Shown: positions 6,475-49,976, counted from the stretch's first letter. The stretch is 64,000 nt of DNA from Rikenellaceae bacterium (GCA_017936385.1 JAGBFQ010000024.1:4927-68926), one strand, 5' to 3'. A program made the numbers and translations. Notes: generated from the sequence alone by a model not told the origin.

Positions 6475-7365
6475 ATGATGAAAAAAGCGTATGTATTCCC
6501 CGGACAAGGGGCACAATTCCCCGGAATGGGACGCGACCTTTACGAAAGTTCGCAGGTGGCGAAAGAGATGTTTGAGAGAGCGAACCAGGTACTCGGCTTC
6601 CGCATTACCGACATCATGTTTGGCGAGGATGCCGAGGCATTGAAACAGACAGCCGTAACACAACCTGCAGTATTCCTGCACTCGGTCATCATGGCCAAAG
6701 TTCTGGGTGAGGAATTTGCGCCCGACATGGTTGCTGGTCACTCACTTGGAGAGTTTTCGGCGCTTGTGGCTGCAGGCGCCCTGTCATTCGAGGACGGACT
6801 TAAATTGGTAGCCAAACGTGCTGCCGCAATGCAGAAGGCTTGCGAAGCTGCACCCTCAACCATGGCTGCTGTTCTCGGCCTTGAGGATAGTGTGGTTGAA
6901 CAGGCTTGTGCCGAAATCGACGGCGTGGTGGTTGCAGCAAACTACAACTGTCCCGGACAGCTGGTAATTTCGGGAACTATCGAGGCGGTGGACGCTGCAT
7001 GCGCCAAACTCAAAGCGTTGGGTGCACGACGTGCCCTGCGTCTGCCCGTAGGAGGTGCTTTCCACTCGCCGCTTATGGAGCCTGCGCGTGTCGAGTTGAG
7101 CGAGGCAATAGAGCAAGCGGAGTTCATGACACCCCGTTGCCCGGTCTACCAAAATGTAGATGCAAAACCACACACCGACCCCTCGCAAATCAAGCAAAAT
7201 CTGGTAGCTCAACTGACCTCTCCCGTGCGTTGGACCTACTGTGTTCAGAACATGATTTCGGATGGTGCGAGCGACTTCACGGAGCTTGGTCCGGGCAAAG
7301 TTCTCCAGGGACTTATCACCAAGATTAACAAGGATGTAAGCGCCGTATCTAAAGAAACAATTTAA
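6475..7365 (+). CDS. fabD: malonyl-CoA:ACP transacylase
   Basis: 296 aa. Motifs FPGQGAQ and the active-site GHSLGEFSAL. Confidence 0.95.
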   Translation: MMKKAYVFPGQGAQFPGMGRDLYESSQVAKEMFERANQVLGFRITDIMFGEDAEALKQTAVTQPAVFLHSVIMAKVLGEEFAPDMVAGHSLGEFSALVAAGALSFEDGLKLVAKRAAAMQKACEAAPSTMAAVLGLEDSVVEQACAEIDGVVVAANYNCPGQLVISGTIEAVDAACAKLKALGARRALRLPVGGAFHSPLMEPARVELSEAIEQAEFMTPRCPVYQNVDAKPHTDPSQIKQNLVAQLTSPVRWTYCVQNMISDGASDFTELGPGKVLQGLITKINKDVSAVSKETI

Positions 7366-10749: not shown

Positions 10750-12360
10750 TTAGTGTTTGAAGTCTGCGAAGAAATCGTTACCCTTATCATCTACGATGAT
10801 GAATGCAGGGAAGTTCTCGATACGAATCTTACGAACGGCCTCCATACCTAGTTCGGGGAAGTCCACAACCTCGACACTCTTAATCGAGTTCTTGGCAAGG
10901 ATTGCAGCCGGACCGCCAATCGAGCCGAGATAGAAACCACCATGTTTCTTACAAGCGTCGGTTACCTCTTGCGAACGGTTACCTTTGGCAACCATCACCA
11001 TCGAGCCACCCAACGATTGGAACAGGTCAACATAGGGGTCCATACGACCTGCTGTGGTCGGGCCGAAACTACCCGAAGCCATACCTGCGGGGGTCTTGGC
11101 AGGACCTGCGTAATATACGGGGTGGTTTTTGAAGTACTCGGGCATGGGTTGACCTTCGTCAATCATCTGTTTGATGCGTGCGTGAGCGATGTCACGAGCA
11201 ACAATCAGCGTACCTTTCAGATTCAGACGGGTTTTGATGGGATATTTGGTCAGCGTAGCCAAAACTTTGTCCATACCCTCGTCGAGGTCGATATCCACTG
11301 CGGGCGACATTGCGGGAGCTTGTGCGGGCAGGTATTTCGAAGGTTCTTTTTCGAGTTGCTCCAACCAGATACCGTCGGCATTGATTTTGGCCTTGATATT
11401 ACGGTCGGCGCTACAACTTACACCGATACCAACGGGGCACGAAGCCGCGTGGCGAGGCATACGAATCACGCGCACGTCATATACAAAGTACTTACCACCG
11501 AATTGAGCACCGATACCGCTTTTTTGGCAGATTTCAAGCACTTTGGCCTCCCACTCCAAGTCACGGAAAGCACGTCCACCCTCGTTACCGCTGGTAGGAA
11601 GGTTGTCGAAGTAGCCTGCCGATGCTTTCTTGACGGCAGCCAGGTTTGCCTCGGCCGAAGTACCGCCCACAACGATTGCCAAGTGGTAGGGAGGACATGC
11701 CGAAGTACCCAGGTCTTTGATGTGCTCGGTGATGAATTTGGTCAGATTCTCCTCGGTCAGCAGGGCTTTGGTCTGTTGGTAGAGGAAAGTTTTGTTGGCC
11801 GAACCACCACCTTTGGTGATAAACAGGAATTTATACTCATTGCCTTTGGTAGCATAGAGGTCGATTTGTGCGGGCAGGTTGGTGCCGCTGTTTTTCTCGT
11901 CGAGCATTGTGAAAGGAACCACCTGCGAATAACGCAGGTTACGCTCAGCGTAGGTTTGATAGACACCGCGCGAGATACACTCGGCATCATCCACACCGGT
12001 ATAAACATTCTCACCCTTCTTACCGATGCAGATTGCGGTACCGGTATCTTGGCAGGTGGGGAGTTCGCCCTCGGCTGCCACGCATTGGTTTACGAGCATG
12101 GTGTACGCCACGAATTTATCGTTATCCGTAGCCTCGGGGTCATTCAGAATGTTATTGAGTTTTTGGAGGTGCGAGCCGCGCAGGTAGAACGAAACGTCGG
12201 CATAGGCCTCCTTCGAGAGCAGTTCAAGACCTTTGGGGTCGATGCGCAAAATCTGACGGTCGCCACACTGTTCGACAGTCACATAGTCTTTGGTTAGCAA
12301 ACGATACTGAGTGGTGTCCTCTCCCATTTCGAAAGGCTCTTGATAGATGAATTCTGCCAT
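10750..12360 (-). CDS. fumB: class I (Fe-S dependent) fumarate hydratase
   Basis: 536 aa fusing alpha and beta domains. Motifs [26 protein letters not shown] and GPTTAGRMD. Confidence 0.9.
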
Positions 12361-14329: not shown

Positions 14330-14454
14330 CGTTGGTTAATTCATTCGACGATAGTGCAAAGATAACACTTGTCGCTCAACTGCCGCACTCCTCGAAATAA
14401 AAAAACGCAAAAAAACGTTCGATAATTAAACTTTTTAAGTACTTTTGTGCCATT

Positions 14455-14955
14455 ATGAACCACAAGATTACAAAATTAACAACCATGGCCGCTGCTCTGT
14501 TTGCAGCCGCCATCTCTCTGTGTGGATGCTTTCCCGAAAACGACGGCTCTCAAACATTCACCAAAGGAGACTTCATTATCGAAGGTCGAATTACCGACTA
14601 TTATCAGAAACCCATCACCAAAGTTCCCGATGGTTTCGAAGCCGACAGTGTAAGAGTGATTCTGTATCGTGTCACCGCCAAGGACCAAACTTTGGCAATC
14701 ACCCCAGCTGAGCAAATTTGCGACACGGTGTGGGCTGACGCAACGGGTCGTTACCAGGTTAAGGATAGCGACTTGACGGAGGTTTCTAATGTTTATGGCT
14801 TGTATATTAGTGATGCGGCTGACAAGTTTCACGCCGAGGAGCGTTACTTCCTGTCACAGGAGTCGACCATCTATGAACGTGGCGACAAATACGAACTTGT
14901 CACCACATTCAACTGCATTCTCTACCCTCACGACTGGCCCGGCCTCAACAAGTAG
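14455..14955 (+). CDS. hypothetical lipoprotein
   Basis: 166 aa with a signal peptide and lipobox-like AISLCGC. No recognisable domain. Confidence 0.55.
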   Translation: MNHKITKLTTMAAALFAAAISLCGCFPENDGSQTFTKGDFIIEGRITDYYQKPITKVPDGFEADSVRVILYRVTAKDQTLAITPAEQICDTVWADATGRYQVKDSDLTEVSNVYGLYISDAADKFHAEERYFLSQESTIYERGDKYELVTTFNCILYPHDWPGLNK

Positions 14956-14980
14956 ACCATTCAACCACAAAACAAAAAAA

Positions 14981-15014
14981 GCAGTCTGACAAAGTTTATT
15001 GTCAGACTGCTTTT
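14981..15014. terminator. bidirectional rho-independent terminator; marks the left edge of the AT-rich island and ends the T6SS-like operon
   Basis: GCAGTCTGAC-AAAGTTTATT-GTCAGACTGC hairpin, flanked by AAAAAAA on the left and TTTT on the right. Confidence 0.85.
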
Positions 15015-15041
15015 GTATATATGCATCAGGGAGAGGGGACT

Positions 15042-16346
15042 CTAATACGCCTCAACCCTTAATTTCACTCCTCCGATTGAGATTATATCACCAGGTCTTA
15101 TCTCCATTCCCTCTTGTGAAACCATATCGGAATTAACAAATGTTCCATTAAGCGAACGTGTCCATATTTCTTTAGACTCCTTGCACCATTGGCCATCACG
15201 GATATACCAAATATCCCTTTCGCAATCCAATTCCAAAGTACAATGACGACGAGAAATATACGTGGATGCTAATTCCGATAATTGTATCATATTAAAAACG
15301 GAATTATCAGCACGACCAATCGTTATAATACGTCTTGGAGACTGTGCAATTTCAGGCAATCTATAATATTTACCACAATCATCGCCTTGCATTACATGTA
15401 ACACCAATCCATTTTGAATAACTATTGGAGCTTCAACCTGACTATCTCTTGCGCCTTTGTAAGGATAACAGTTTGCGGGCATTTTATCGAGCAGTTCATC
15501 AATATTTCTTGCTCGTTTGCTTGCATCTGCTTGCAAACAAGCATTCAGAATACTTAACCACATTTCACTATTTTCATCCCTCAACAATAGGTTGCTATTC
15601 CACTCATTATTCCTTGCGCGTGTTTGATACAGAACCCAATCCGAGTCCGTATTCAATGGTCCAAAGGGCAACTCACCTGTCAATAGCTGATAAAGAATAA
15701 CTCCAAACGAAAATATATCAACCGTAGGCAAAATGGTAGAACATTTCTCAATGCGATATAATTCGGGAGCTCGATAAGCTTTCGTACTATCTACCGTTCT
15801 CATCTGCCTTGAGCTATTATCAATGGCGCCACGTCGCCCAAATGTCACATAATTAGTTATCACAGCATGGTCGCCCTCTGTAATCAACACATCCTCGGGA
15901 GTTAATTGACCATGTACTTTTCCCGATTTATGCAAATCTCTCAAACCATACAGAATCTCCTTCACTACTTTGATTGTATTCAGCCTTGGATTTGACATCA
16001 AGTGCGACAACTCTTCCGAACTACAATATTCCATCAACAAATATGGATTACCATTCACACGTCCCGAGTGTGTGATGGTTGTCAAATAATTACTCTTAAT
16101 CCTACAACTCTTTATTTCATTCTCGGCCGAATGCAACATACTTTGACGTAGACGAGATTCCACATCCCAAAGTTTGAGTAGTTTTAGAATATACTCTTTT
16201 CCTGAAGTATCATTCACTTTGAACTTTTGGTCGGTTTGAGAGAAACCCAATACCCGTTCCACTCTAAACTTACCATCTATCATATCATGCATGCGAAAAT
16301 CGCAGCGTTGAACTATATTATTTTTCATATCATATTCATTTTTCAA
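15042..16346 (-). CDS. Ser/Thr protein kinase-like domain (predicted pseudokinase) fused to a C-terminal FHA domain
   Basis: 434 aa. The kinase fold is recognisable (YILK lysine, YRAPE, DIFSFGVILYQLLTGELPF). The catalytic loop reads HGQLTPED instead of HRDLKPxN, and DFG is replaced by TNY. The C-terminal FHA is canonical (IGR...ISRRHC...SLNGTFVN). Confidence 0.85.
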   Translation of the reverse strand: MKNEYDMKNNIVQRCDFRMHDMIDGKFRVERVLGFSQTDQKFKVNDTSGKEYILKLLKLWDVESRLRQSMLHSAENEIKSCRIKSNYLTTITHSGRVNGNPYLLMEYCSSEELSHLMSNPRLNTIKVVKEILYGLRDLHKSGKVHGQLTPEDVLITEGDHAVITNYVTFGRRGAIDNSSRQMRTVDSTKAYRAPELYRIEKCSTILPTVDIFSFGVILYQLLTGELPFGPLNTDSDWVLYQTRARNNEWNSNLLLRDENSEMWLSILNACLQADASKRARNIDELLDKMPANCYPYKGARDSQVEAPIVIQNGLVLHVMQGDDCGKYYRLPEIAQSPRRIITIGRADNSVFNMIQLSELASTYISRRHCTLELDCERDIWYIRDGQWCKESKEIWTRSLNGTFVNSDMVSQEGMEIRPGDIISIGGVKLRVEAY

Positions 16347-16379
16347 GTATTACCCAAAGAGATTACAACACATCAACAA

Positions 16380-16823
16380 TTATATTTTTCGTGTTTTAAT
16401 ATTAAATTCAAAGAGTCGATTTCCCATTTTGATAATATCCCCCGGTTCCAACTTAATTCCGGCGCCAGCATGGACATAAGTTGAATTATCATGTGAACGG
16501 TCCTCAATGAACCAGTGGCCATCAGAGAAGAAGAAACATGCTTGTTCTTCATCATCTATAGACCTATCATGCGGCACGGTGTTTTGACGCGAAAGATAAA
16601 CCTCTGCACCTTCTTCATAAACCTCCTCCGGCATTTCACGCTCTCCGGGTTGTGCTATTGGTCGTAACGTACAATAAGGTATCTCCTCTTCATTGTAGTC
16701 AAACACTTCCTCCTCTGCAACAGGAACTTTTGTCACAATCTCATCTGTCATCTCTGCCAAGCAATTCGGGCAGATGTGCATCCCATTTATTACGGGATAG
16801 CCACAATTATTACATTGTATCAT
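16380..16823 (-). CDS. zinc-ribbon protein with a C-terminal degenerate FHA-like domain
   Basis: 147 aa. N-terminal CNNCGYPVINGMHICPNC and an acidic linker. The C-terminus (FFFSDGHWFIEDRSHDNSTYV...GDIIKMGNRLFEF) has FHA-like periodicity but lacks the S-x-x-H pair. Confidence 0.65.
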   Translation of the reverse strand: MIQCNNCGYPVINGMHICPNCLAEMTDEIVTKVPVAEEEVFDYNEEEIPYCTLRPIAQPGEREMPEEVYEEGAEVYLSRQNTVPHDRSIDDEEQACFFFSDGHWFIEDRSHDNSTYVHAGAGIKLEPGDIIKMGNRLFEFNIKTRKI

Positions 16824-16863
16824 TTGATTGATTATTAGTTCATTTTTGATTAAAATTCAACAC

Positions 16864-17610
16864 CTATATTGATTGGTTTAACATATACTCAAATGCTTTT
16901 TCAGCTTGTAGTTCTTCACGAGTAGCATTCCAACCATCATCTATTTTTGTCAGAATCTCCTTATTCTTATTTTCAATTTTCTCACCTACACGACTTATAC
17001 TATCTTTGGCCTTTTTAATAGTTCGAGCGAAATAGTCGTCAAATATTTCTATACATTTAAATTTTTCTGATGACTTTACTACCTTTTGAGTCAATGTTGA
17101 CACACTATATCCACAGCGAGAACAGAGTATATTTTTAAAATTTATAATAGCAGGTTTGATGCTTCCGACAGGAATATATTTAGCAAGCTTTGCACCTGGT
17201 ATAGCTCCTACTAGGTTTAAAAAACCACCAAGGACATCACCTACAGCAAAACACCCAACAGCCAAAGCTAAACTACAAACCATTCCAATTGGCCCTGGAA
17301 CAAAACTACCCACTTCTGCTGCCGACTTCAATATGACTAATTGTATATCAGCAACGCATTTTGACAAATCTGCTGCGATATTAATAATGTCATCTATATT
17401 GCCTTTCTTTAAAGTGATAGCTAACTTGTCTAATAGGGAAAGAATTTCATCCCATTTTGTAAGTATTATGCTTAATCCAAAAGGATTAGTCCATTTACAA
17501 TTTGCCAAATCGGACTTTATTCCTTCAACACCTGCTCTTTTTAAAGTAGTATGAAACTGCCTTATAACATTACTTAGGCCTTCTAGAATTTCAGTTGATA
17601 TAGTAGCCAT
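16864..17610 (-). CDS. hypothetical helical protein with a central glycine-zipper / predicted TM hairpin
   Basis: 248 aa. The hydrophobic Gly-rich core is VGSFVPGPIGMVCSLALAVGCFAVGDVLGGFLNLVGAIPGA, flanked by charged helical regions. No family recognised. Confidence 0.65.
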   Translation of the reverse strand: MATISTEILEGLSNVIRQFHTTLKRAGVEGIKSDLANCKWTNPFGLSIILTKWDEILSLLDKLAITLKKGNIDDIINIAADLSKCVADIQLVILKSAAEVGSFVPGPIGMVCSLALAVGCFAVGDVLGGFLNLVGAIPGAKLAKYIPVGSIKPAIINFKNILCSRCGYSVSTLTQKVVKSSEKFKCIEIFDDYFARTIKKAKDSISRVGEKIENKNKEILTKIDDGWNATREELQAEKAFEYMLNQSI

Positions 17611-17618
17611 GCAAATGA

Positions 17619-19307
17619 TTAAGATATGGTCAATTGATAACTAAAACTCTTTCTCAACTCAATATTAATCTTCAAATAATTGAAGAAATCGGAATTATTA
17701 ACTTCGGTTTTCAAGGCCTCCGACAGGATATTGAAATGTATGTTTATACACTTCTCAATATGGCCATCGATAGGAACATAGCTCTCGGAAAGTGATATAT
17801 TGCAAGAGTTGATGGCTTCTTCGCCAAAAGCACGCATGAATTCTACTTTGCAATATTGCAACAGGTCGATTTTCGTAAACAAACGGTCGTTGCTATTCAC
17901 AATATGCCTTACCAACTCTTTACGAGTATTCAAGTCCTTGATTTTATTTCGTCCTCCGGTTGCATCTATCAATGCTTCTATATCTCCAACAGCAGCATTC
18001 GTCGATGTTAATTTGCCTCCACGTCTTAAAAGATTACCACGTTCTCCATTTGTCGTAAAATATGTCAGAACCATTGGTTGCTGATTATTTTGAGGTTTGC
18101 GTATAGCATATGCACCCCCATACGAACGAGGACGTTCTGAACGATACTCATCAAGTGAATCATAAATCTGCATCATCGAATGACGCAACGAGCGCAACAT
18201 TGCACCATCATGCAACGAATTACTATCCACAAATGCGTAGTAATCATTCACATAGTGATGATACAGACTGGTTATATCTTCACGTATACGCTCGTTGTCA
18301 TATTGGCTCACGTCAAAATCTCGGATAAAGTAATCTTGAGCCAACTCTTGATTTTGTACAACCTCTAAAAAATATGTATCTGTTTTATCATTCTCCAAAC
18401 GTTGTATCGGTTCGCTATAACTCAGTTTCACATTTTGAATATCATAATTCACAACCGGAATGCTATTCAACTGTATGGCTGTTTCAAGTGGTAATGAGAT
18501 ATTTTCAGACGACTTAATTCGTATCCACAAAAAGCGATTACCTACAAACGGTTCTATTACCTCTTGTGCATAGGAGTCCATTATCCATGCCGGTATTTCG
18601 CCACGATTGAGAGTCCGTTTATTGGAGCACTTCCCAAATCGGTAAAGCCACAACCCATAATAAACCAAACTTTCTTTCCAAAACTCCTTTAGCATAAAAT
18701 TTGAATTCATTGCACATGGAGTATCATCCATCACCAACGACATAGGAATCTGCACGTCACCCACTTCGGCCATGAGTTGGTTCGATGGTAATGGATGTGA
18801 AAAAGCGATTGTGACATCTTCTAATGTATTAACTTCCCCCAAAGCGTCAAATGCCAACCAAATTTCATGTTTGTGTCTATTTTCTGGCCAAGTAGCTTGT
18901 AATGGTGCCCTATTGGGTTGCAACAACGTATTATTCATAAAACAGGCAGCAATACGTCCGGGAATAATACGACTCTTAAAAATAGGACGGTAATTACATT
19001 TTGTTGCCTTATATGAGAACGCATCATTCTCATCAATGTAATAAGGGGTGTACTCCTGTCCATTGCCTATGCTCACCACCGTAACAGCGGGCTGTGCTTG
19101 CAAATTACCATGTTGCAAAACTTGATTGCAAAACTGTTCTGATAATTTCGCAACCGTTTGGTCCATTTTTCTCTCAATCTCACAAGATTGATGAGCCATG
19201 GCAACGAGCATCATTTTGGCAATAGGGTCAGATAACGAAATACGCTGTTCGTCCTGTTCCAAGGCTCGTTGCAAGTCGACTACTTTATTTCTTACTTTTA
19301 TGTCCAT
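17619..19307 (-). CDS. tssF: TssF-like T6SS baseplate subunit (gp6-like)
   Basis: 562 aa. The N-terminal pattern DPIAKMMLVAMAHQSCEIERKMDQTVAKLSEQFCNQVL...QPAVTVV parallels the conserved TssF DPyVErL..gfAFL...kLDdE.PelTe..l..L.P.yl..iPs block. Its start overlaps the tssE-like stop by 1 nt. Confidence 0.7.
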   Translation of the reverse strand: MDIKVRNKVVDLQRALEQDEQRISLSDPIAKMMLVAMAHQSCEIERKMDQTVAKLSEQFCNQVLQHGNLQAQPAVTVVSIGNGQEYTPYYIDENDAFSYKATKCNYRPIFKSRIIPGRIAACFMNNTLLQPNRAPLQATWPENRHKHEIWLAFDALGEVNTLEDVTIAFSHPLPSNQLMAEVGDVQIPMSLVMDDTPCAMNSNFMLKEFWKESLVYYGLWLYRFGKCSNKRTLNRGEIPAWIMDSYAQEVIEPFVGNRFLWIRIKSSENISLPLETAIQLNSIPVVNYDIQNVKLSYSEPIQRLENDKTDTYFLEVVQNQELAQDYFIRDFDVSQYDNERIREDITSLYHHYVNDYYAFVDSNSLHDGAMLRSLRHSMMQIYDSLDEYRSERPRSYGGAYAIRKPQNNQQPMVLTYFTTNGERGNLLRRGGKLTSTNAAVGDIEALIDATGGRNKIKDLNTRKELVRHIVNSNDRLFTKIDLLQYCKVEFMRAFGEEAINSCNISLSESYVPIDGHIEKCINIHFNILSEALKTEVNNSDFFNYLKINIELRKSFSYQLTIS

Positions 19308-19837
19308 TATTTATTATTTAAAAATGGGTCCATAAAGAATTCTACCTCACGATGATACTCTCCCTCGCGAGTACCAATATATTCATTATGGGTTAGCAAA
19401 CCTTTAACTAACACTCGAACAACATATTTACTGTTCTCGCCACGATGGGAATACTTATTTTTCTCCATACTTAGTTGCACCTCTACTTCAAGTTGTTGCA
19501 GAAATGGGATATAGTATAGAATGCTATCACGAACACTCTTTTCGCATTGTTTGATGCCAGCTCGTGACATCTGCACCTTCTCCTCCCTGTTGTTTTTGTG
19601 TTTTACAATCTTAAAATCCGCTCCATGATTGAAATCAACCAAATTCATGGCAATAAATTCATTGTCCCAAAAGCTAAATCCAAATTCTTCATCAGCCTTA
19701 AAACGTCGAATACTTGTAAAAACAACTGTATCCACCCAATTGTCTATGACAGTGGACACTTGGGTTAACGGACGCTCAATCTGTAAATTCAATTGTTCGT
19801 CGTTGACAAAACGTATGGGAGAATTGCTATAATGCAT
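19307..19837 (-). CDS. tssE: TssE-like / gp25-like baseplate wedge protein
   Basis: 176 aa. Assigned from its position immediately upstream of tssF and weak gp25-like features (VIDNWVDTVVFT..., SVRDSILYYIPFLQQLEVEV). Sequence support is modest. Confidence 0.5.
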   Translation of the reverse strand: MHYSNSPIRFVNDEQLNLQIERPLTQVSTVIDNWVDTVVFTSIRRFKADEEFGFSFWDNEFIAMNLVDFNHGADFKIVKHKNNREEKVQMSRAGIKQCEKSVRDSILYYIPFLQQLEVEVQLSMEKNKYSHRGENSKYVVRVLVKGLLTHNEYIGTREGEYHREVEFFMDPFLNNK

Positions 19838-19839
19838 CT

Positions 19840-27586: not shown

Positions 27587-28993
27587 TTATTTAATTTCAT
27601 TTGTCCATTCTGTCACGCCGTTTTCTCCATTATGTCCTGTCAACTTAATGTAGAAGTTCTTTGCGGCAAAGAAGGGCTTCAATTCTATCTCAATCTCAAT
27701 ATCTTTGGTCTTTTCGTTACGAACAATCTTAGGATTGGAGTATCCCTCGATAAGTTTACCGGGACCTTTGTAATCCTCGAGAAAATCTATAACTTGTTCT
27801 CGAAGTTCTTGAGCTAACTTACCATTCCAATTTTTGAATGCTTCATCATTGAAGAAATTAGAGAATACCTTGCCTATCCAGTCGAATACGCGAACAATGG
27901 GATACTCTTGCAAACCAATAGTTGCACCATTATAAAGTGAGCGGTTCGAAAAGGCCATTACTCTATTTTCCTCAAATGTCATAGGTACGACACCCTTGTC
28001 AATCAAAGCGGTAAGCTCGGACTTGAGCAAATCAAGACGAGTGCCTTTTGCCATATCTATTGTGCCATATTTCTTTCCGGCAATACCTTGTGAAATCGGA
28101 GTTTCATCTGTATTGCTCATACGACCGGCAATAGCTGCGGAAGGGGGCAGGAATAAATCTTCTTCCTCCTCATTATTTTCATCCGATTTCTTACGACCAA
28201 GAATATAGTTACAAGCCATAATAACGTTGGCCAAGTAGGCGTCCGTATCACTCAAGTTGGCTTTATCCAAACCCTTGTTCAGAAGTTTAAGTGTAGGCGA
28301 GTCAGCATAATCCGTAACCAGCATTACTTTGTTTCGATACGCCATCTGTCCCCACATATTCACCACCTGCTTGCTACCCAAATAACCTGGGCTTACAAGA
28401 AGTGAATAATTCTCTTTCAACGACAGACGGTCGTAACTTCTGTTCAACTCATCACGTACTGCTGCAAATACACGACCATCAGGGTCTCCCAAATCCTCTT
28501 TATCTACGTTTATCAGATTCAGACATTGGAGTTTTGCTTGACCTGAGTTTGCAAAGAATTCTCCAAGCGAACGATAAGCAGTTTCCAATTTGCGAGTCTG
28601 CTCATGCACACTACCAAGATTTTGAAGTAGGTTCTTTTCAGCAGCCTTTGCAGCCTCTTGACACTTCTCTACAGCTTCAGACGCAGTTGTAGCCTCACTA
28701 TCAAGGATATTCAGCCACATGAGCAAATCTGTCTTCAAACGTTTACGTTGTTCTGCAAATTCACTATCTTGCAAAAAGATTTTTTTTGCAGCTCTGCTTT
28801 CGGGATTCATATTCTCCAATCCGTCTGCCATCGTTTCCAAAAGGTCGAAATCGCCATAGTCTTCCAAACCTTCTATGCTTTCTTTTAAACGTTCAGCAGG
28901 ATTGTCAATTTTCTTTATCTCTTCCAAATAAGCACTTTCGGCTGTTGTAACAACGCTCGCGGCTTGTGCTTGTGGCATCAATTCTTCTGACAT
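27587..28993 (-). CDS. tssC: TssC contractile sheath large subunit
   Basis: 468 aa from the internal Met (MSEELMPQAQ). The ORF-track start at 29092 would overlap tssB by 71 nt. Size and position after tssB fit, and the conserved-looking core is VTDYADSPTLKLL...ACNYILGR...GIAGKKYGTIDMAKGTR. Confidence 0.8.
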   Translation of the reverse strand: MSEELMPQAQAASVVTTAESAYLEEIKKIDNPAERLKESIEGLEDYGDFDLLETMADGLENMNPESRAAKKIFLQDSEFAEQRKRLKTDLLMWLNILDSEATTASEAVEKCQEAAKAAEKNLLQNLGSVHEQTRKLETAYRSLGEFFANSGQAKLQCLNLINVDKEDLGDPDGRVFAAVRDELNRSYDRLSLKENYSLLVSPGYLGSKQVVNMWGQMAYRNKVMLVTDYADSPTLKLLNKGLDKANLSDTDAYLANVIMACNYILGRKKSDENNEEEEDLFLPPSAAIAGRMSNTDETPISQGIAGKKYGTIDMAKGTRLDLLKSELTALIDKGVVPMTFEENRVMAFSNRSLYNGATIGLQEYPIVRVFDWIGKVFSNFFNDEAFKNWNGKLAQELREQVIDFLEDYKGPGKLIEGYSNPKIVRNEKTKDIEIEIELKPFFAAKNFYIKLTGHNGENGVTEWTNEIK

Positions 28994-29021
28994 AATTATA
29001 TCTGAATTTATCGGGTTTACT

Positions 29022-29471
29022 TTATTGATTTTTCTCCAACTCTGCAAGAAGTGCTTGCAATGCAACAACCAGGTGTTTCCTGCTTTCTTCATCTTCGAAT
29101 GCGCGTCTAAGAACTTTATTCTTAATCAACTGTTGCTCAATCGCATTATAAGAGTCAATAGCTGCTTTTTGTTGACCCAAATAAGCACTTTGCTTTATCA
29201 GTTCTTTATCATCAAAGTCCTTAATCGCATTGAATTTGAAATTCTCCTTTATAGGACGACCTTCCAAATCCAGCATTTGCACATTGCGTTTTTCGGGTTG
29301 GTAGCGTTCAAAGACATCCTCCATAGTTTCGGGTTGAAAAACTTCACCCGGTTTAACCGGTGCCACGTCCGTAAACTGGTCTACATAAAGAGTTCTGTTT
29401 TGTGGAAATTCAATAATCCCATCTACTGCCTCAGCATCGAGGACTTTCGAAATTACTGTTTTCTTTGCCAT
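29022..29471 (-). CDS. tssB: TssB contractile sheath small subunit
   Basis: 149 aa. FKFNAIKDFDDKELIKQSAYLGQQ resembles the TssB F.smdDF.P..va.qv..L block. It lies directly upstream of tssC. Confidence 0.7.
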   Translation of the reverse strand: MAKKTVISKVLDAEAVDGIIEFPQNRTLYVDQFTDVAPVKPGEVFQPETMEDVFERYQPEKRNVQMLDLEGRPIKENFKFNAIKDFDDKELIKQSAYLGQQKAAIDSYNAIEQQLIKNKVLRRAFEDEESRKHLVVALQALLAELEKNQ

Positions 29472-29498
29472 ATTAGTGATATTTTAAGTGTTTATTCT

Positions 29499-31751
29499 TT
29501 AATTCGAATGTGATACATCCCATTTAAGTTCATCTTGTTCACTTATTGTGAGGGTCACACTATCACCCTCGTTCAACTCACCTGAGATTATCATCTTTGA
29601 TAATGGTCGACGAATATCCTTTCGGAGAATTCCAAGAATAGGTCTTGCTCCATACTGAGCATTAAACCCACTCATTGCAATCTTGTGGACAGCCTTATCA
29701 TCAACAGTAAGTGTAATATTTTGTTCTTCCAAAGTTTTCAACAATCCCTTCAAGTGAATATTGAAAATCATCGTTACAATCTTCTCGTTGATTGGTGCGA
29801 AAGGAACAATTTCAGTAAGGCGAGCCAAAAATTCCGGACGGAAATGTCCTTGCATCACTTCAAGCATATCATTATGTGTCGGGACAATATTTTTTGCAAA
29901 TTGTTCAAACACATATTGACTACCAATATTGGAAGTGAAAATAATTAACGCATTAGAGAAATCGCCCACACGACCCAATCTATCATGTAACTTACCCTCA
30001 TCAAGAATCTGCAAGAATAAGTCAAATACTGAACGATGAGCCTTTTCAATTTCATCAAAAAGCACAATAGAATATGGTTTCTGGCGGATTTGGTTTACCA
30101 ACAAACCACCTTCTTCATAACCAACATATCCTGGAGGCGCGCCATAAAGCAGAGCCACCGAGTGCTCTTCCTTATATTCCGACATATCAAATCGAAGAAT
30201 TGCTGTATCATCCTGGAATAAAAACTCCGCTAATGATTTTGCAAGTTCGGTCTTACCTGTTCCAGTAGGACCGAGGAAGAAGAAACTTCCGATAGGTTGT
30301 CCTTTTTTGTTCAATCCGGAACGAGACTCATAAATCGAATCCAACACCGCTTTGATTGCATGGTCTTGACCGACTACACGTTTCTTCAGTATATCCTCCG
30401 CATTAACAAGTCTATCACGTTCTGCCGCTTGAACATTACCTAACGGGATACCTGTTTTTTGCGACACAACCTCCATCAGATGCTCGACCCCTACAATATC
30501 TTTCTTTTCTTCAGGATTCAAATCATTTTTGATTTTCAACAAGGCCATTGTCCTATCTATCAAATCTATTGCAGAGTCAGGCAGATGTTTTTCACTGAAA
30601 TATCTCTTGGCAAGTCTAATTGAATTTATCGTAAAATCTTCCGAGACCGTCAAATTATGGAATGTTTCGAATGATTTTACAACAGATTGAAGAATAATGT
30701 TGGTGGCATCAACAGAAGGTTCCTCGATAATAATACGCTCAAACTTGCCTAAGATTTCTTTATCCGTTTCTATATTCTTTGTAAATCCTTCTATCGAGGA
30801 GGTACAAATACACAACAAACCTTGATTCAACGAAGATTTCAAAAGGTTAATTGTACCATTGAGTGTACCCTGTTTATCCATTAATTTATCGAATGATTCA
30901 ATAACAAGAATCGCATTATCCTTGTCAGATAACTCATCCAATATTTTTTTCATTCGACCCTCAATTTCGCTTTTGTACGAAACGCCAATAGACAAAGCAA
31001 TTGTATCAAGTTCATAAACCTGTGCATTTTGCAGATAAGTAGGAACAACGCCTTTCGATATTGCTTGCACAAAAGCATTCACCAATGCAGTTTTACCGAC
31101 ACCCGATTCTCCTGTTATAAGAATATTGGATTTAGTTTTACGTCCAAGAATTCCATAAATTTCTCCAAGCTCTTTCTCAAAACCAATAGTTTCAGACAAT
31201 TGTCCATCGGATTGTTGCTGATTCTTAAGAATGCAATAACTCTCGATACTTTTACCCGCAGAATTTTTTGAACGTTTTTTCACTTCGCCATTAGATGTAT
31301 TACCTCCTATAACGTTTTGACTTCCACAAGCAGCAACAATACTTTCTTTTTGAAGCGGCAATGTTTTCAGCTGTTCAAATGTAAATCCGACACCAGGAGT
31401 TACAACTGCTATAAGTAGTGAGATAGCGTCAATCGACTCTTTCTTGGCTGCGGCACGAATACTATCAGCCTCACTAACAACTGCCTTTGTCAATGCTGAA
31501 AAACCTTTAGCTGAAGAATCAGAACTTTTCTTGGACATTTTAATTCGCATGTCAGCCCACTCCAATATATAGTAATAATCCGCATCTAAAGTCTTCTCAA
31601 CAAAAGAAACCAAACCAATATCTTTGTGTAAAAGAGCCTTCAAAACATGAGCCGGTTCTATGGCCGCATTCATATTCTCTTTTGCATACGCCTCTGCTAT
31701 CTGAAAAACTTCAATTACACTTTCGTCAAATCCGTCTAATTTATTGGTCAT
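29499..31751 (-). CDS. clpV: ClpV (TssH) AAA+ sheath-recycling ATPase, ClpB family
   Basis: 750 aa. Clp_N-like N-domain, D1 Walker A GESGVGKT and D2 Walker A GPTGTGKT with Walker B VLFDEIEKAH. The D1 Walker B reads ILVIESFD (degenerate). Confidence 0.9.
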   Translation of the reverse strand: MTNKLDGFDESVIEVFQIAEAYAKENMNAAIEPAHVLKALLHKDIGLVSFVEKTLDADYYYILEWADMRIKMSKKSSDSSAKGFSALTKAVVSEADSIRAAAKKESIDAISLLIAVVTPGVGFTFEQLKTLPLQKESIVAACGSQNVIGGNTSNGEVKKRSKNSAGKSIESYCILKNQQQSDGQLSETIGFEKELGEIYGILGRKTKSNILITGESGVGKTALVNAFVQAISKGVVPTYLQNAQVYELDTIALSIGVSYKSEIEGRMKKILDELSDKDNAILVIESFDKLMDKQGTLNGTINLLKSSLNQGLLCICTSSIEGFTKNIETDKEILGKFERIIIEEPSVDATNIILQSVVKSFETFHNLTVSEDFTINSIRLAKRYFSEKHLPDSAIDLIDRTMALLKIKNDLNPEEKKDIVGVEHLMEVVSQKTGIPLGNVQAAERDRLVNAEDILKKRVVGQDHAIKAVLDSIYESRSGLNKKGQPIGSFFFLGPTGTGKTELAKSLAEFLFQDDTAILRFDMSEYKEEHSVALLYGAPPGYVGYEEGGLLVNQIRQKPYSIVLFDEIEKAHRSVFDLFLQILDEGKLHDRLGRVGDFSNALIIFTSNIGSQYVFEQFAKNIVPTHNDMLEVMQGHFRPEFLARLTEIVPFAPINEKIVTMIFNIHLKGLLKTLEEQNITLTVDDKAVHKIAMSGFNAQYGARPILGILRKDIRRPLSKMIISGELNEGDSVTLTISEQDELKWDVSHSN

Positions 31752-31878
31752 ATCTAAACAATTAAAAGGTTAATGTAAGTTAGGTTATATTTACACAAAC
31801 TCACGGCAAACATCAAGACCTAATTTTAGTTATGCTGATAAACATTCATTCCAAGAACAAGTGTTTCACCATTCATAA

Positions 31879-32448
31879 CTATATTTTGCCAATATCATTT
31901 TTACTAATTTCCACACATATATATCCAAACAAATTCAGATATACACCAACCATTGGTTTTCTATCTTCAACATAACACAACTCCCCACACAATCCTTTCA
32001 ATGGTCCACGTACTATTTCTATTTTTTCGCCCAATTCAAACACTGTTTCAGCTACTTTGACCTTCGAGTCTGCATTACTTAACATAAATTTCAACCTATC
32101 AATCTGCTCTTCAGGTATTATTGCTGCCTCAGACTGTCCTGGATACGACAATAGTTTATAAACAAAGGAGTATGATTTTATCTCCTGCTCAACACGTTTA
32201 TTCACGTACGCAAAAACGACCATCGGGATAACAACCTTTTCTATTCTCTTTTTACGGTCGCTCCATTGGTGTATTTCAGTTTGTGTCGGCACATAATTTC
32301 GAATTCCCAACTTGGTCAATTTCTCACTCGTTTTCTTCTCTGTATTCATTTGAACGAGCATCGCAATCCAATATTTAGGGCACGCTTCGCGTTCGTTTGT
32401 CACATCAACAAACGAACGGTCGCATTTATTACACCCAATATTAGACAT
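31879..32448 (-). CDS. UpxY-family (NusG-like) transcription antiterminator; first gene of the T6SS-like operon
   Basis: 189 aa. NGN domain (WIAMLVQMNTEKKTSEKLTKLGIRNYVPT...VIPMVVFAYV) and a C-terminal KOW motif (GEKIEIVRGPLKGLCGEL). Confidence 0.8.
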   Translation of the reverse strand: MSNIGCNKCDRSFVDVTNEREACPKYWIAMLVQMNTEKKTSEKLTKLGIRNYVPTQTEIHQWSDRKKRIEKVVIPMVVFAYVNKRVEQEIKSYSFVYKLLSYPGQSEAAIIPEEQIDRLKFMLSNADSKVKVAETVFELGEKIEIVRGPLKGLCGELCYVEDRKPMVGVYLNLFGYICVEISKNDIGKI

Positions 32449-32467: not shown

Positions 32468-32488
32468 ACATCTTCTAAAAGGAGATGT
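32468..32488. repeat. inverted repeat, left arm (IR-L) of the putative inverton
   Basis: ACATCTTCTAAAAGGAGATGT is the exact reverse complement of 32645-32665. Confidence 0.9.
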
Positions 32489-32598
32489 ATATAGGGCGTA
32501 TCATAATGTAAAATAATTAGTTTATGAATGCTAAAGTCAAATAAAATGGTGTAATATGTATAAAAAAGATGATTAAATAGATATTTATTTGTTTTATA

Positions 32599-32631
32599 AT
32601 TGGGTGGAAATAAAAAAAATACATATCTTTG
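32599..32631 (+). promoter_or_regulatory. Bacteroides sigma-A type promoter inside the inverton, currently facing away from the operon
   Basis: ATTG (32599-32602), a 21-nt spacer, then TATCTTTG (32624-32631). This matches the TTTG / TAnnTTTG consensus on the plus strand. Confidence 0.55.
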
Positions 32632-32644
32632 TGAAATATAACAC

Positions 32645-32665
32645 ACATCTCCTTTTAGAAGATGT
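32645..32665. repeat. inverted repeat, right arm (IR-R) of the putative inverton
   Basis: ACATCTCCTTTTAGAAGATGT is the exact reverse complement of 32468-32488. Confidence 0.9.
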
Positions 32666-32722
32666 ACATTAAGTTATAAACGCAAAGGGGACGGGTTGTT
32701 TTACGAATAGTTTTCACACAAA

Positions 32723-32768
32723 ACGCCACGAGGTTCGACCATAATGGTCGAACCTCGTGGCGTTTTTG
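32723..32768. terminator. strong bidirectional terminator downstream of lpxA; marks the right edge of the AT-rich island
   Basis: 18-bp perfect stem ACGCCACGAGGTTCGACC / GGTCGAACCTCGTGGCGT with a 5-nt loop, flanked by AAAA and TTTTT. Confidence 0.9.
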
Positions 32769-48555: not shown

Positions 48556-49845
48556 TTACAAACCAAATTTGGCCTTGATTTCATCCACGCAATCCAGGCG
48601 TTCCCAACCGAAATACTCGATTTCGCGCTCAACCTGTTTGCCGCCCTCCCAGAACTTCTCGACAGCCTTGTAGGGACGGTTACCGAAGTGACCATACGAT
48701 GCTGTTGCCTCGAAAATGGGGTTCTTCAGACCAAAGCGTTTAACAATCGCTGCGGGACGCAGGTCGAACATCTCGGCTACCTTCTCGGCAACCTCACCGT
48801 CGGTCATCTCTACCTTCGAGGTGCCATAGGTATCAACATACACGCTCAGAGGTTGTGCTATACCGATTGCATAGGAGAGTTGAACCAAAATCTCGTCAGC
48901 AACGCCTGCTGCTACCATATTTTTGGCAATATGGCGAGCTGCGTATGCTGCCGAACGGTCGACCTTCGACGAGTCCTTACCCGAGAATGCACCGCCACCG
49001 TGTGCGCCACGGCCACCATAGGTGTCGACGATAATCTTACGGCCGGTCAGACCCGTATCACCGTGCGGGCCACCAATCACAAACTTACCGGTGGGGTTTA
49101 CGTGCAGGATATAGTTGTCATCGATGAGTTCCGAGAGTTTATCACCTGCACGCTCCAGACGAGCCTTCACTCGAGGAATCAGAATGTTGCGAACATCCTC
49201 TTTGATGATGCGGCCCATCTCCTCCTCGGCTTGTTTGTCGGTGCGGCCCTCACCGGCTACCACAAAATCGTCGTGTTGGGTCGAAACCACAATGGTGTGA
49301 ACACGTACGGGTTTGTTATCGTCGCCGTACTCGATGGTAACTTGGCTCTTCGAGTCGGGACGCAAGTAGGTCATCACCTTACCCTCGCGGCGAATTACCG
49401 CCAACTCTTTGAGGATAACGTGTGCCAGAATCAGCGTTGCGGGCATATACTCTTTGGTCTCGCTCGAGGCGTAACCGAACATAATACCTTGGTCACCTGC
49501 GCCTTGGTCCTCGTCTTTCTCGCGCACAACGCCTTGGTTGATATCGGAGCTTTGCTCGTGGATAGCCGAGAGGATACCGCACGAATTGCCGTCAAATTGA
49601 TACTCGCTCTTGGTGTAGCCGATACGGTTGATAACGCCGCGTGCAACGCTCTGAACATCGACATATGCATCGCTGCGCACCTCACCTGCAACTACCACCA
49701 TACCTGTGGTGCAGAGGGTTTCGCAAGCTACTTTCGAATTGGGGTCATGACGAAGGAACTCGTCAAGAATGGCGTCCGAAATTTGGTCGGATACTTTGTC
49801 GGGATGTCCCTCGGACACCGACTCTGATGTAAACAAAAATCCCAT
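48556..49845 (-). CDS. metK: S-adenosylmethionine synthetase
   Basis: 429 aa. Motifs [19 protein letters not shown] and GGGAFSGKD. Confidence 0.97.
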
Positions 49846-49976
49846 CTTTCAATCAGTTTTTTGAGTATTAAACGTATTTAAAGTGGGAAAAATTGGCTGG
49901 CTGTATAAAAGAATGCTGTTTTAGCGTTTTTTTATTGTGGTTGCAATCAGTCCAAATCTTTCCACATTTTCGGCCG

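Follow-up and report, generated by a model that had tools for sequence, protein, structure and literature searches.

Results

A packed operon encodes the firing machinery of a T6SS

We analysed a 64,000-nucleotide stretch of DNA from a Rikenellaceae bacterium (GCA_017936385.1, JAGBFQ010000024.1:4927-68926; hereafter the window), in which a single 17.4-kb operon encodes the full cytoplasmic firing apparatus of a type VI secretion system (T6SS). The operon forms an island of 16 co-directional open reading frames (ORFs), all intact and all on the minus strand, between positions 15042 and 32448. The packed layout described in the initial annotation of this DNA was confirmed by the ORF coordinates: as called mechanically, tssE and tssF overlap by 1 nt (at 19307) and tssK and tssE are spaced by 2 nt. 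A 23-nt overlap of the M23 peptidase gene with tssG, also described there, is true of the mechanical ORFs but disappears with the most likely TssG start, which was revised to 21773 (308 aa) using a TssG alignment. The start of TssC was moved from 29092 to 28993, the most likely position; the exact 468-aa product is recorded in four metagenome contigs. The island is indeed AT-rich, with a G+C content of 0.378 against 0.501 and 0.516 in its two flanks. An intrinsic terminator with a 16-bp stem (14977-15014, minus strand) marks the operon end; it is by far the strongest terminator-like site, the five other minus-strand sites between 14300 and 33000 having stems of at most 9 pairs. Because a strong terminator follows the last gene and no comparable one is found inside, the cluster reads as one operon. 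Rfam gave no match inside the island, and a sigma-70 promoter scan gave a count below the shuffled expectation, the sigma-70 model being not applicable to Bacteroidota.

We identified the components by Pfam and NCBIfam profiles and by BLASTP comparison with a canonical Bacteroides T6SS locus. The sheath-recycling ATPase ClpV (TssH; 29499-31751; Clp_N, AAA_2 at 1e-58, ClpB_D2-small) is 43% identical to ClpV of the canonical locus. It is followed by the small sheath subunit TssB (29022-29471), which has no Pfam match and aligns with canonical TssB at 7e-23, and by the large sheath subunit TssC (27587-28993; PF17541, 7e-131). Next come two TssD tube proteins, Hcp1 (27149-27559; PF17642, 5e-29) and Hcp2 (26629-27078; PF17642, 3e-31), the VgrG spike (23471-26617; Phage_GPD 3e-12, Phage_base_V 2e-23, TIGR03361 3e-33) and a PAAR-like DUF4280 spike tip with a Gly/Ala/Pro-rich linker and a short C-terminal tail (22611-23453; PF14107, 1e-26). 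Two baseplate wedge proteins are also present: TssG (20847-21773), without a Pfam match and similar at 2e-7 to the protein in the TssG position of the canonical locus, and TssF (17619-19307), similar to canonical TssF at 1e-7 over 513 aa and matching PF05947 (4e-4) and TIGR03359 (1e-3). All these proteins had been named from motifs in the initial annotation, and the searches bear the names out.

The extension of VgrG, about 470 aa long, is N-terminal and not C-terminal, since Phage_GPD covers residues 501-779 and Phage_base_V residues 838-915; it contains coiled coils, a Gly-rich hydrophobic stretch and a weak WXG100 match (0.0025). Among the related loci described below the extension differs in length and sequence (VgrG 653-1240 aa), and five of the seven loci with a shorter one have a separate ORF of 109-132 aa upstream of vgrG.

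TssK (19840-20838) matched TIGR03353 at 1e-15 and had no BLAST similarity to Bacteroides TssK. Structure prediction was needed because a TssK profile found only weak TssK matches among PDB sequences; TssC, TssF and a TssE profile gave nothing useful in such searches. With the AlphaFold model (pLDDT 77), the top 15 PDB matches in Foldseek were TssK structures, followed by Francisella IglD, and the best was the N-terminal-domain construct 5MWN (E = 6e-9), so that the motif-based naming of this protein also stands. As modelled, the protein consists of the beta-sandwich shoulder and helical neck only, without the C-terminal head domain. It is this head domain that makes the TssL/TssM contact in T6SS-i, and the window TssK model does not have it. 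The adjoining 176-aa ORF (19307-19837) is probably TssE, the gp25-like baseplate protein: it lies beside tssF, carries the FG..WD.EF motif common to canonical TssE and aligns with canonical TssE in hhalign at E = 0.002, and phmmer searches from three relatives gave 3e-4 to 9e-4. GPW_gp25 matched four of nine members of this family, weakly (E >= 0.06), and the name TssE is therefore weakly supported.

All together, the island contains a TssB/TssC sheath, an Hcp tube with a VgrG and PAAR-type tip, TssE, F, G and K, and ClpV, TssE being the weakest of these assignments. Sheath, tube, spike and gp25-like proteins are also common to extracellular contractile injection systems and prophage tails, and a cluster of that kind might have been taken for a T6SS. 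Nevertheless, ClpV and a structurally confirmed TssK are both present, the Hcp proteins are of the T6SS type, and the 16 ORFs include no tail-fibre, tape-measure or lysis genes. We give this explanation almost no credence and agree with the initial annotation that the island encodes a genuine T6SS.

TssC places the island in a lineage beside canonical T6SS-iii

Scanning one genome per species with the TssG alignment returned 15 loci, in Alistipes, Parabacteroides, Bacteroides, Phocaeicola intestinalis, Cryptobacteroides, Lentimicrobiaceae, Tannerellaceae and Muribaculaceae; a metagenome scan with TssB returned 154 relatives. Cultured carriers are Phocaeicola intestinalis Sa1CVN1 and Parabacteroides pacaensis, an isolate found by protein look-up. 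The lineage occurs in gut bacteria of several families from human, mouse, chicken, buffalo and other animals, and also in rumen Bacteroidales. Its TssE-like and TssK-like proteins fall into 179 and 134 protein-database clusters, respectively, and every named one is called "hypothetical protein".

Survey of syntenic loci in other Bacteroidales showed that 15 genome loci and 80 metagenome loci share the lineage, and we read its usual form from these. The common order is clpV, tssB, tssC, hcp, hcp, a small ORF in some, vgrG, DUF4280, M23, tssG, tssK, tssE, tssF, a variable slot, a Zn-ribbon/FHA gene, again an optional small ORF, the pseudokinase-FHA gene, a transmembrane kinase gene and a gene for a secreted WG-repeat protein. 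In a neighbour-joining tree of TssC, the lineage formed two sister clades (A and B) apart from six canonical T6SS-iii loci of three classes. The window TssC falls in the close clade A, and clade B TssC are 53-58% identical to it. Identity is 53-98% within the lineage and 34-43% against canonical T6SS-iii; five of the six canonical TssC share 54-75% with each other, and the sixth, from Runella, shares 40-46% with them. As judged from these sequences, the lineage is a separate clade, sister to canonical T6SS-iii. This answers only part of what the initial annotation left to phylogeny: on TssC alone, and against one canonical Bacteroidales locus, the window locus does not group with that locus.

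The island was horizontally acquired, as had been proposed from its composition. In clade A, TssC identity is 88-98% even between host families, and the G+C content of most loci is 33-41% (44-55% in deeper branches); in one locus (L006) a relaxase gene follows. These features fit recent horizontal spread.

The Runella rosea locus, on plasmid NZ_CP030851.1 (Cytophagales), has a TssC 34-38% identical to those of the new lineage in addition to the 40-46% shared with the other canonical proteins, and may be yet another deep branch. Clade B metagenome loci (L048-L109) have the order UpxY-clpV-tssB-tssC-hcp, their downstream half being outside the data. The second Hcp of clade B is often fused to very large C-terminal extensions, the longest of 1341 aa. 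Genes for a Tle1-like phospholipase and a DUF2931 protein come after DUF4280, and conjugative-transposon genes lie upstream. One clade A variant (L110) has an extra 322-aa kinase gene between tssK and tssE (11021-11989 of that locus).

Neither known membrane complex is found in the island

All 16 ORFs were scanned with Pfam and 10 of the 16 with NCBIfam. The canonical comparison was an annotated Bacteroides finegoldii locus with TssN, two copies of TssO, TssP (annotated as a PKD protein) and TssR; this was the one canonical Bacteroidales locus compared directly, GA2 and GA3 references being outside the comparison. TssJ/L/M, TssA, TssN and TssO had no match in either profile set. The B. finegoldii TssN, both TssO, TssP and TssR had no BLASTP match among the 16 ORFs and no tblastn match in the 64 kb, and canonical TssN, O, P and R had no phmmer match over about 100 related loci. 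These absences, which come from sequence methods plus one structure, agree with the initial annotation, in which neither TssJ/L/M nor TssN/O/P/Q/R nor TssA had been recognised. TssA is not among the nine components of the T6SS-iii core (PMC10781749).

Predicted hydrophobic membrane or signal segments occur in three ORFs, namely the signal peptide of the M23 peptidase, a 248-aa protein and the tail of the DUF4280 protein. Residues 107-125 of ClpV also passed the hydrophobic threshold and were discounted, ClpV being a cytoplasmic ATPase. The island encodes no polytopic inner-membrane protein of the TssN type. Moreover, tssG (20847-21773) and tssK (19840-20838) are 8 nt apart with no tssN between them. 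In canonical T6SS-iii, tssN lies systematically between tssK and tssG, TssN docks TssK, and nearly all systems have at least tssN and tssP (PMC10781749).

Could the island be part of an ordinary T6SS-iii of the GA1-GA3 type, with TssNOPQR encoded at a second locus? Its sheath and tube proteins do match the Bacteroidetes-specific families PF17541 and PF17642, and T6SS-iii systems divided over several loci exist (PMC10781749). However, the window TssC is only 39-41% identical to that of a locus shared by several Bacteroides, Phocaeicola and Parabacteroides species on an integrative and conjugative element (ICE), from which the gene order differs too, and the lineage lies outside the six canonical loci sampled. 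Neither the tssG-tssK junction nor the sequence of TssK, unrelated to that of the TssN-binding Bacteroides TssK, fits such a system, and full-length relatives are contiguous 30-kb loci without any of TssN-R. We therefore regard this explanation as very improbable.

Relatives carry accessory modules that the window copy lacks

The metagenome loci extend further to the 5' side of clpV than the genome loci. Of 14 clade A loci with any gene visible ahead of clpV, 13 have there, on the same strand, part or all of a conserved block; in the exception (L013) a cut ORF at the end of the locus matches no block gene. By Pfam and NCBIfam the block encodes a PP2C phosphatase, a 182-aa FHA-transmembrane (TM) protein, an FHA-FHA-TM protein of 505-520 aa with a periplasmic trypsin-like domain, a secreted 560-aa WG-repeat protein and a 225-aa outer-membrane beta-barrel, and it further includes genes for a lipoprotein of 470-630 aa and a secreted 415-aa protein. 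The phosphatase has a C-terminal membrane helix, which we saw in the sequences and which is not listed by the scan. The FHA domains of the block match TIGR03354 (TagH) at 1e-12 to 1e-14, and also PF16697, the cytoplasmic domain of an inner-membrane component of type III secretion systems (T3SS). Downstream, relatives encode an active TM Ser/Thr kinase, with intact VAIK, HRD and DFG motifs and a TM helix, and a secreted 397-aa WG-repeat protein. Six or seven of these nine accessory genes of close relatives have a predicted membrane or secreted topology.

No gene of the upstream block had a match anywhere in the 64-kb window, and the active TM kinase and the 397-aa WG-repeat protein are absent from it as well. 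Nucleotide homology to the relatives ends exactly at the stop codon of the pseudokinase gene (15043) and at the clpV start (31751). The initial annotation had called this architecture minimal; that description fails, given that full-length relatives carry seven genes upstream and two downstream, none of which is in the window. Because the relatives carry accessory genes that the window lacks, the missing membrane complex is at least partly a matter of truncation. By comparison of gene content, then, the window copy is a cut-down version in which both accessory modules are lost. The accessory genes likely are the replacement envelope module of the lineage.

What remains of the FHA/kinase module in the window is the pseudokinase half only; the active kinase and PP2C have no match there. 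The last gene of the operon (15042-16346) encodes a kinase domain fused to a canonical FHA domain (Pkinase 1.5e-24, FHA 5e-12), and the kinase is a pseudokinase because HRD is replaced by HGQ and DFG by TNY. Both replacements are conserved in 17 of 18 homologues, in agreement with the original naming of the gene. Next to it, a Zn-ribbon protein with a degenerate FHA domain (16380-16823) is conserved in the lineage, being present in 16 loci; its designation survives with less certainty, the Pfam matches being weak (Zn_Ribbon_1 0.002, FHA 0.006).

A conserved cell-wall hydrolase and candidate cargo

The gene between DUF4280 and tssG (21775-22566) encodes a Sec-exported M23 peptidoglycan endopeptidase (PF01551, 1e-24), as had been recognised. 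Its signal peptide is found in 12 of 12 aligned stand-alone homologues, with the cleavage site AQS in all except one (L016, TQS). Unlike the candidate cargo, the protein shows conservation of both sequence and position, and none of the 12 stand-alone forms has an immunity gene behind it. In three deep-branching loci M23 is instead fused to the DUF4280 tip, with a lipoprotein gene next. Hydrolases that open the cell wall for a T6SS have precedents in TagX and MltE (PMC13584744), and by analogy the M23 peptidase may play that role here; the fused DUF4280-M23 form may double as an effector.

DUF4280 proteins of the lineage are modular, with a tip, a conserved Gly/Ala/Pro-rich linker and a locus-specific C-terminal domain, which in relatives is HExxH, YkuD-like, M23 or other and often followed by a small ORF. 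In the window the linker is present and only about 50 residues lie beyond it. We considered whether the linker might be the Pfam pre-toxin TG domain; neither it nor the hydrophobic stretch of the 248-aa protein matched this domain at E <= 5, and the idea was dropped.

The slot after tssF (16864-17610) holds a helical 248-aa protein with a Gly-zipper hydrophobic hairpin. It falls into 14 clusters at 90% identity and 52 representatives at 50%. A full profile search showed conservation at residues 20-145 and a variable C-terminus, and the conserved motif recurs near the C-terminus of a 1915-aa protein. A Foldseek search with the AlphaFold model (pLDDT 68), one of the structural checks that had been envisaged, gave no PDB match at E <= 0.001. 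Elsewhere the slot is filled by GHSLGG lipase-like proteins, a phospholipase-like protein, or a peptidoglycan-binding protein with TM helices; in L110 it contains a phospholipase-like protein (14435-15436). We rejected the 248-aa protein as a membrane anchor: its clusters are few, conservation is confined to the N-terminal two-thirds, and because unrelated proteins fill its slot in many loci it is not a core part. From this pattern it is read as candidate cargo or a cargo adaptor.

Neither beside the 248-aa gene nor elsewhere in the window is an immunity gene evident. The earlier statement that there is no obvious effector-immunity pair is thus only partly right: immunity genes are not evident, but candidate effectors do exist, the operon encoding one or two candidates for cargo. 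A 94-aa small ORF found between the Zn-ribbon/FHA and pseudokinase genes was considered as the immunity protein of the slot effector and rejected, since it accompanies four different slot proteins.

It might still be argued that the 16 genes are enough for a self-sufficient minimal T6SS, with passage through the envelope provided by the M23 peptidase and perhaps by the hydrophobic 248-aa protein. All 16 ORFs are intact, copies of the locus in three metagenomes are identical to the window where compared and a fourth is one base off, and the locus has acquired a switch and an antiterminator of its own (see below), which suggests use; moreover, M23 is Sec-exported and conserved, and the 248-aa protein has a two-helix hydrophobic hairpin. 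Yet close relatives keep nine further conserved genes, most of them for predicted membrane or secreted proteins, the 248-aa protein is swapped for unrelated lipase-like or other proteins in many loci, and in both studied T6SS types baseplate assembly requires the membrane complex (PMC10781749). We consider self-sufficiency improbable.

A probable invertible promoter precedes the operon

The first gene of the operon (31879-32448) encodes a UpxY-like antiterminator of the NusG family, an earlier assignment supported by PF02357 (NusG N-terminal domain, 9e-9). It is preceded by a probable invertible promoter (32468-32665), a segment of 156 bp between two perfect inverted repeats of 21 bp (32468-32488 and 32645-32665). 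A single -7 box of the Bacteroides type, TATCTTTG, is present, at plus-strand position 32624, and is directed away from the operon, that is, OFF. Three metagenome contigs that span the switch have the same OFF orientation. Another, L004, one of four metagenome contigs with the locus, ends at the switch with an ON junction (L004 1-60): it starts with 8 nt of the UpxY-side flank, then the repeat, then the inverted segment. An 8-nt match at this junction has a chance probability of about 1.5e-5. Beyond the switch, just downstream of lpxA, a perfect palindrome of 23+23 nt with a 1-nt loop (32720-32766) would act as a bidirectional terminator and stop transcription from the promoter in its OFF orientation.

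This regulatory head sets the window apart from its clade A relatives, which have no UpxY gene wherever the region upstream of clpV is visible. UpxY of the window is 58-62% identical to UpxY of sister-clade loci. One of these (L063, UpxY 58% identical) has a near-identical repeat core (6800-7025) with 180 bp between the arms and an adjacent tyrosine recombinase gene, and sits within a conjugative element that encodes TraM, TraN and TraG; the recombinase had no tblastn match in the 64-kb window. Because L063 shares both switch and UpxY, the window copy reads as a mosaic of a clade-B-type regulatory head on a clade-A core. UpxY and an invertible promoter have taken the place of its 5' accessory block, and the ICE-borne sister clade has a promoter of this type.

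One natural copy differs from the window. In L002 (sample ERZ27256931) the sole difference in 11.5 kb is TAC to TAA, a Y43* allele of TssK (window 20710, L002 8373). This allele is one argument for an inactive remnant, a product of partial transfer or deletion that assembles nothing in the envelope and is decaying: both accessory modules are gone, homology breaks exactly at gene boundaries, the remaining kinase is a pseudokinase, the promoter is OFF in the window and the three spanning contigs, and gut Bacteroidales often lose T6SS function (PMC11901371). However, all 16 ORFs are still open in 17.4 kb of DNA of 38% G+C, the two arms of the inverted repeat match perfectly, and an ON junction occurs in a natural sample. 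In addition, because the core has been given a regulatory head of its own, selection after the rearrangement is indicated, which speaks against decay. The remnant explanation is thus on the unlikely side, while carrying real weight.

The island lies between ordinary chromosomal genes

The left flank encodes fumarase, BatD and a LytTR two-component pair, and the right flank lpxA, lpxC/fabZ, an Na/H exchanger and a lipid A deacylase; both are ordinary chromosome. No tRNA gene adjoins the island, and no integrase, transposase or recombinase was found among ten flank ORFs scanned with Pfam. Between the island terminator and the LytTR genes, a 166-aa ORF on the plus strand (14455-14955) encodes a predicted lipoprotein (lipobox LCGC) without a Pfam match, and has an intermediate G+C content of 0.41-0.50. 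Further away, a SAM-II (long-loop) riboswitch (67 bits; 49911-49971, minus strand) lies upstream of a 429-aa minus-strand ORF (48556-49845).

Discussion

Starting from the observed gene identities, lineage, absences, truncation and OFF orientation, we consider it likely that the island is a genuine, horizontally acquired T6SS of a Bacteroidales lineage that has neither of the known anchors, and that the window holds a cut-down mosaic copy of it, which has lost its envelope and kinase genes and is governed by an invertible promoter in the OFF state. Expression would begin when the promoter flips to ON and UpxY allows RNA polymerase to read through all 16 genes. M23 would then open the cell wall locally. 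In the complete systems of the lineage, the FHA-TM proteins, the kinase and the phosphatase may form the inner-membrane platform, with the beta-barrel, the lipoprotein and the periplasmic proteins as its outer part. The headless TssK would be recruited to the platform, probably via FHA/phospho-threonine contacts, and the sheath would contract and be recycled by ClpV. A structural role of the FHA-TM-periplasmic proteins, as ring components, is possible because the FHA domains of the block match PF16697, from a T3SS inner-membrane component. In T6SS-i, TssK contacts the cytoplasmic domains of TssL and TssM (PMC10781749), and the PpkA/Fha axis is reported to govern positioning and initiation (PMC12607579).

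If the window copy fires at all, it would need envelope parts from elsewhere in the genome; otherwise it would be inert. Its state may therefore be complemented from elsewhere, inert or, least likely, self-sufficient.

Several points weigh against our reading. TssN-R could be too divergent for sequence methods. A second locus with the block genes, or a co-resident canonical T6SS-iii membrane complex, may lie elsewhere in the genome, our search having covered the 64-kb window. The envelope role of the block is predicted from its conserved linkage, topology and domain content, and the block could be purely regulatory, like TagQRST/PpkA/PppA/Fha in Pseudomonas. Finally, the ON orientation rests on a single 8-nt junction at one contig end.

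A further proposal, which we put forward tentatively and with clearly less confidence than the reading above, is that the lineage represents an additional T6SS subtype. Its envelope complex, a third kind and recruited independently, would consist of FHA-TM proteins, beta-barrel and lipoprotein and be switched by Ser/Thr phosphorylation, and the headless TssK would dock to it through FHA/phospho-threonine contacts. If so, the window would present a core that has been uncoupled from its module, put under the control of a phase-variable promoter and maintained in a natural population. Should the linked envelope genes indeed be the anchor, they would be a third independent way to fix a contractile machine in the Gram-negative envelope, and the lineage would be a T6SS of Bacteroidota controlled by Ser/Thr phosphorylation. 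To our knowledge, no earlier example of such control in this phylum has been reported. With an invertible promoter ahead of a T6SS, antagonism would also join the phase-variable traits of gut Bacteroidales.

Reviews of 2025 and 2026 and a culture-collection study of 2024 recognise only GA1-GA3 and T6SS-i to -iv; according to the reviews, gut Bacteroidales have three T6SS architectures, all with a TssNOPQR membrane complex, and in a 2024 survey this complex was present, whole or in part, in all of 443 Bacteroidota systems. Two unclassified loci and a putative Prevotella stercorea system are named, but not described further, in Coyne 2016. We found no description in the literature of a fourth architecture, of a T6SS with kinase, FHA and DUF4280 genes in Bacteroidota, or of an invertible promoter on a T6SS locus, and the suggestion of the initial annotation that the architecture may be undescribed has held up. 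The lineage breaks the rule that all such systems have TssNOPQR and is invisible to survey profiles, its TssB, TssE and TssG being without a Pfam match. There is a lesson for annotation in this, as T6SS surveys of gut metagenomes undercount such systems.

Among known systems, T6SS-iii is similar in several respects. TssC and Hcp belong to the Bacteroidetes-specific PF17541 and PF17642, the hosts are Bacteroidota, TssA and TssJLM are absent while ClpV, VgrG, a PAAR-like tip and TssEFGK are present, and relatives are on mobile elements, as the relaxase of L006 and the Tra genes of L063 indicate. In contrast to T6SS-iii, the window lineage has no TssN/O/P/Q/R, tssG and tssK are adjacent, TssC identity is 34-43%, TssK is without sequence similarity to Bacteroides TssK, and the gene order is clpV-tssB-tssC-hcp-hcp-vgrG-DUF4280-M23-tssG-K-E-F; it also has Ser/Thr kinase, PP2C and FHA genes and an envelope set of its own. 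Within any one of the architectures GA1-GA3, near-identical DNA and gene order would be expected, whereas the window differs in gene order and in TssC identity, at 39-41%, from the multi-species ICE locus, the reference used for this comparison.

The in-locus genes of the relatives for a TM Hanks-type kinase, PP2C and FHA proteins, together with an outer-membrane protein and a lipoprotein, recall the threonine phosphorylation pathway of T6SS-i (PpkA-PppA-Fha1, TagQRST; TagH). Nevertheless, host phylum and sheath family are different, and TssJLM, the complex on which the pathway would act, is absent. Further, the FHA proteins of the lineage are membrane-anchored, one of them with a periplasmic trypsin-like domain, and an extra FHA-pseudokinase is present; the window keeps only this pseudokinase and the degenerate Zn-ribbon/FHA protein. 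As for M23, it is, like TagX of Acinetobacter and MltE of enteroaggregative Escherichia coli, a conserved, non-polymorphic in-locus hydrolase that is exported to the periplasm of the producer and has no immunity gene. It differs in being an M23 endopeptidase, TagX being a VanY-type L,D-endopeptidase and MltE a lytic transglycosylase, and in that three relatives have an M23 domain fused to the DUF4280 tip with a lipoprotein next, an effector-immunity layout.

The switch resembles those of Bacteroides capsule loci in its inverted repeats, its promoter with a TAnnTTTG -7 box, the UpxY/NusG-like first gene and the long operon behind it. Unlike these, it controls a secretion machine, no UpxZ-like second gene follows, and no invertase is found in the 64-kb window, whereas L063 has an adjacent tyrosine recombinase gene. 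T6SS-iv (Amoebophilus) and extracellular injection systems are likewise contractile, occur in Bacteroidota and are without TssJLM or TssN-R, but they have neither ClpV nor TssK, and the window has both. In comparison with all these systems the core is clearly that of a T6SS, and the accessory envelope set would be new in kind if confirmed as its anchor.

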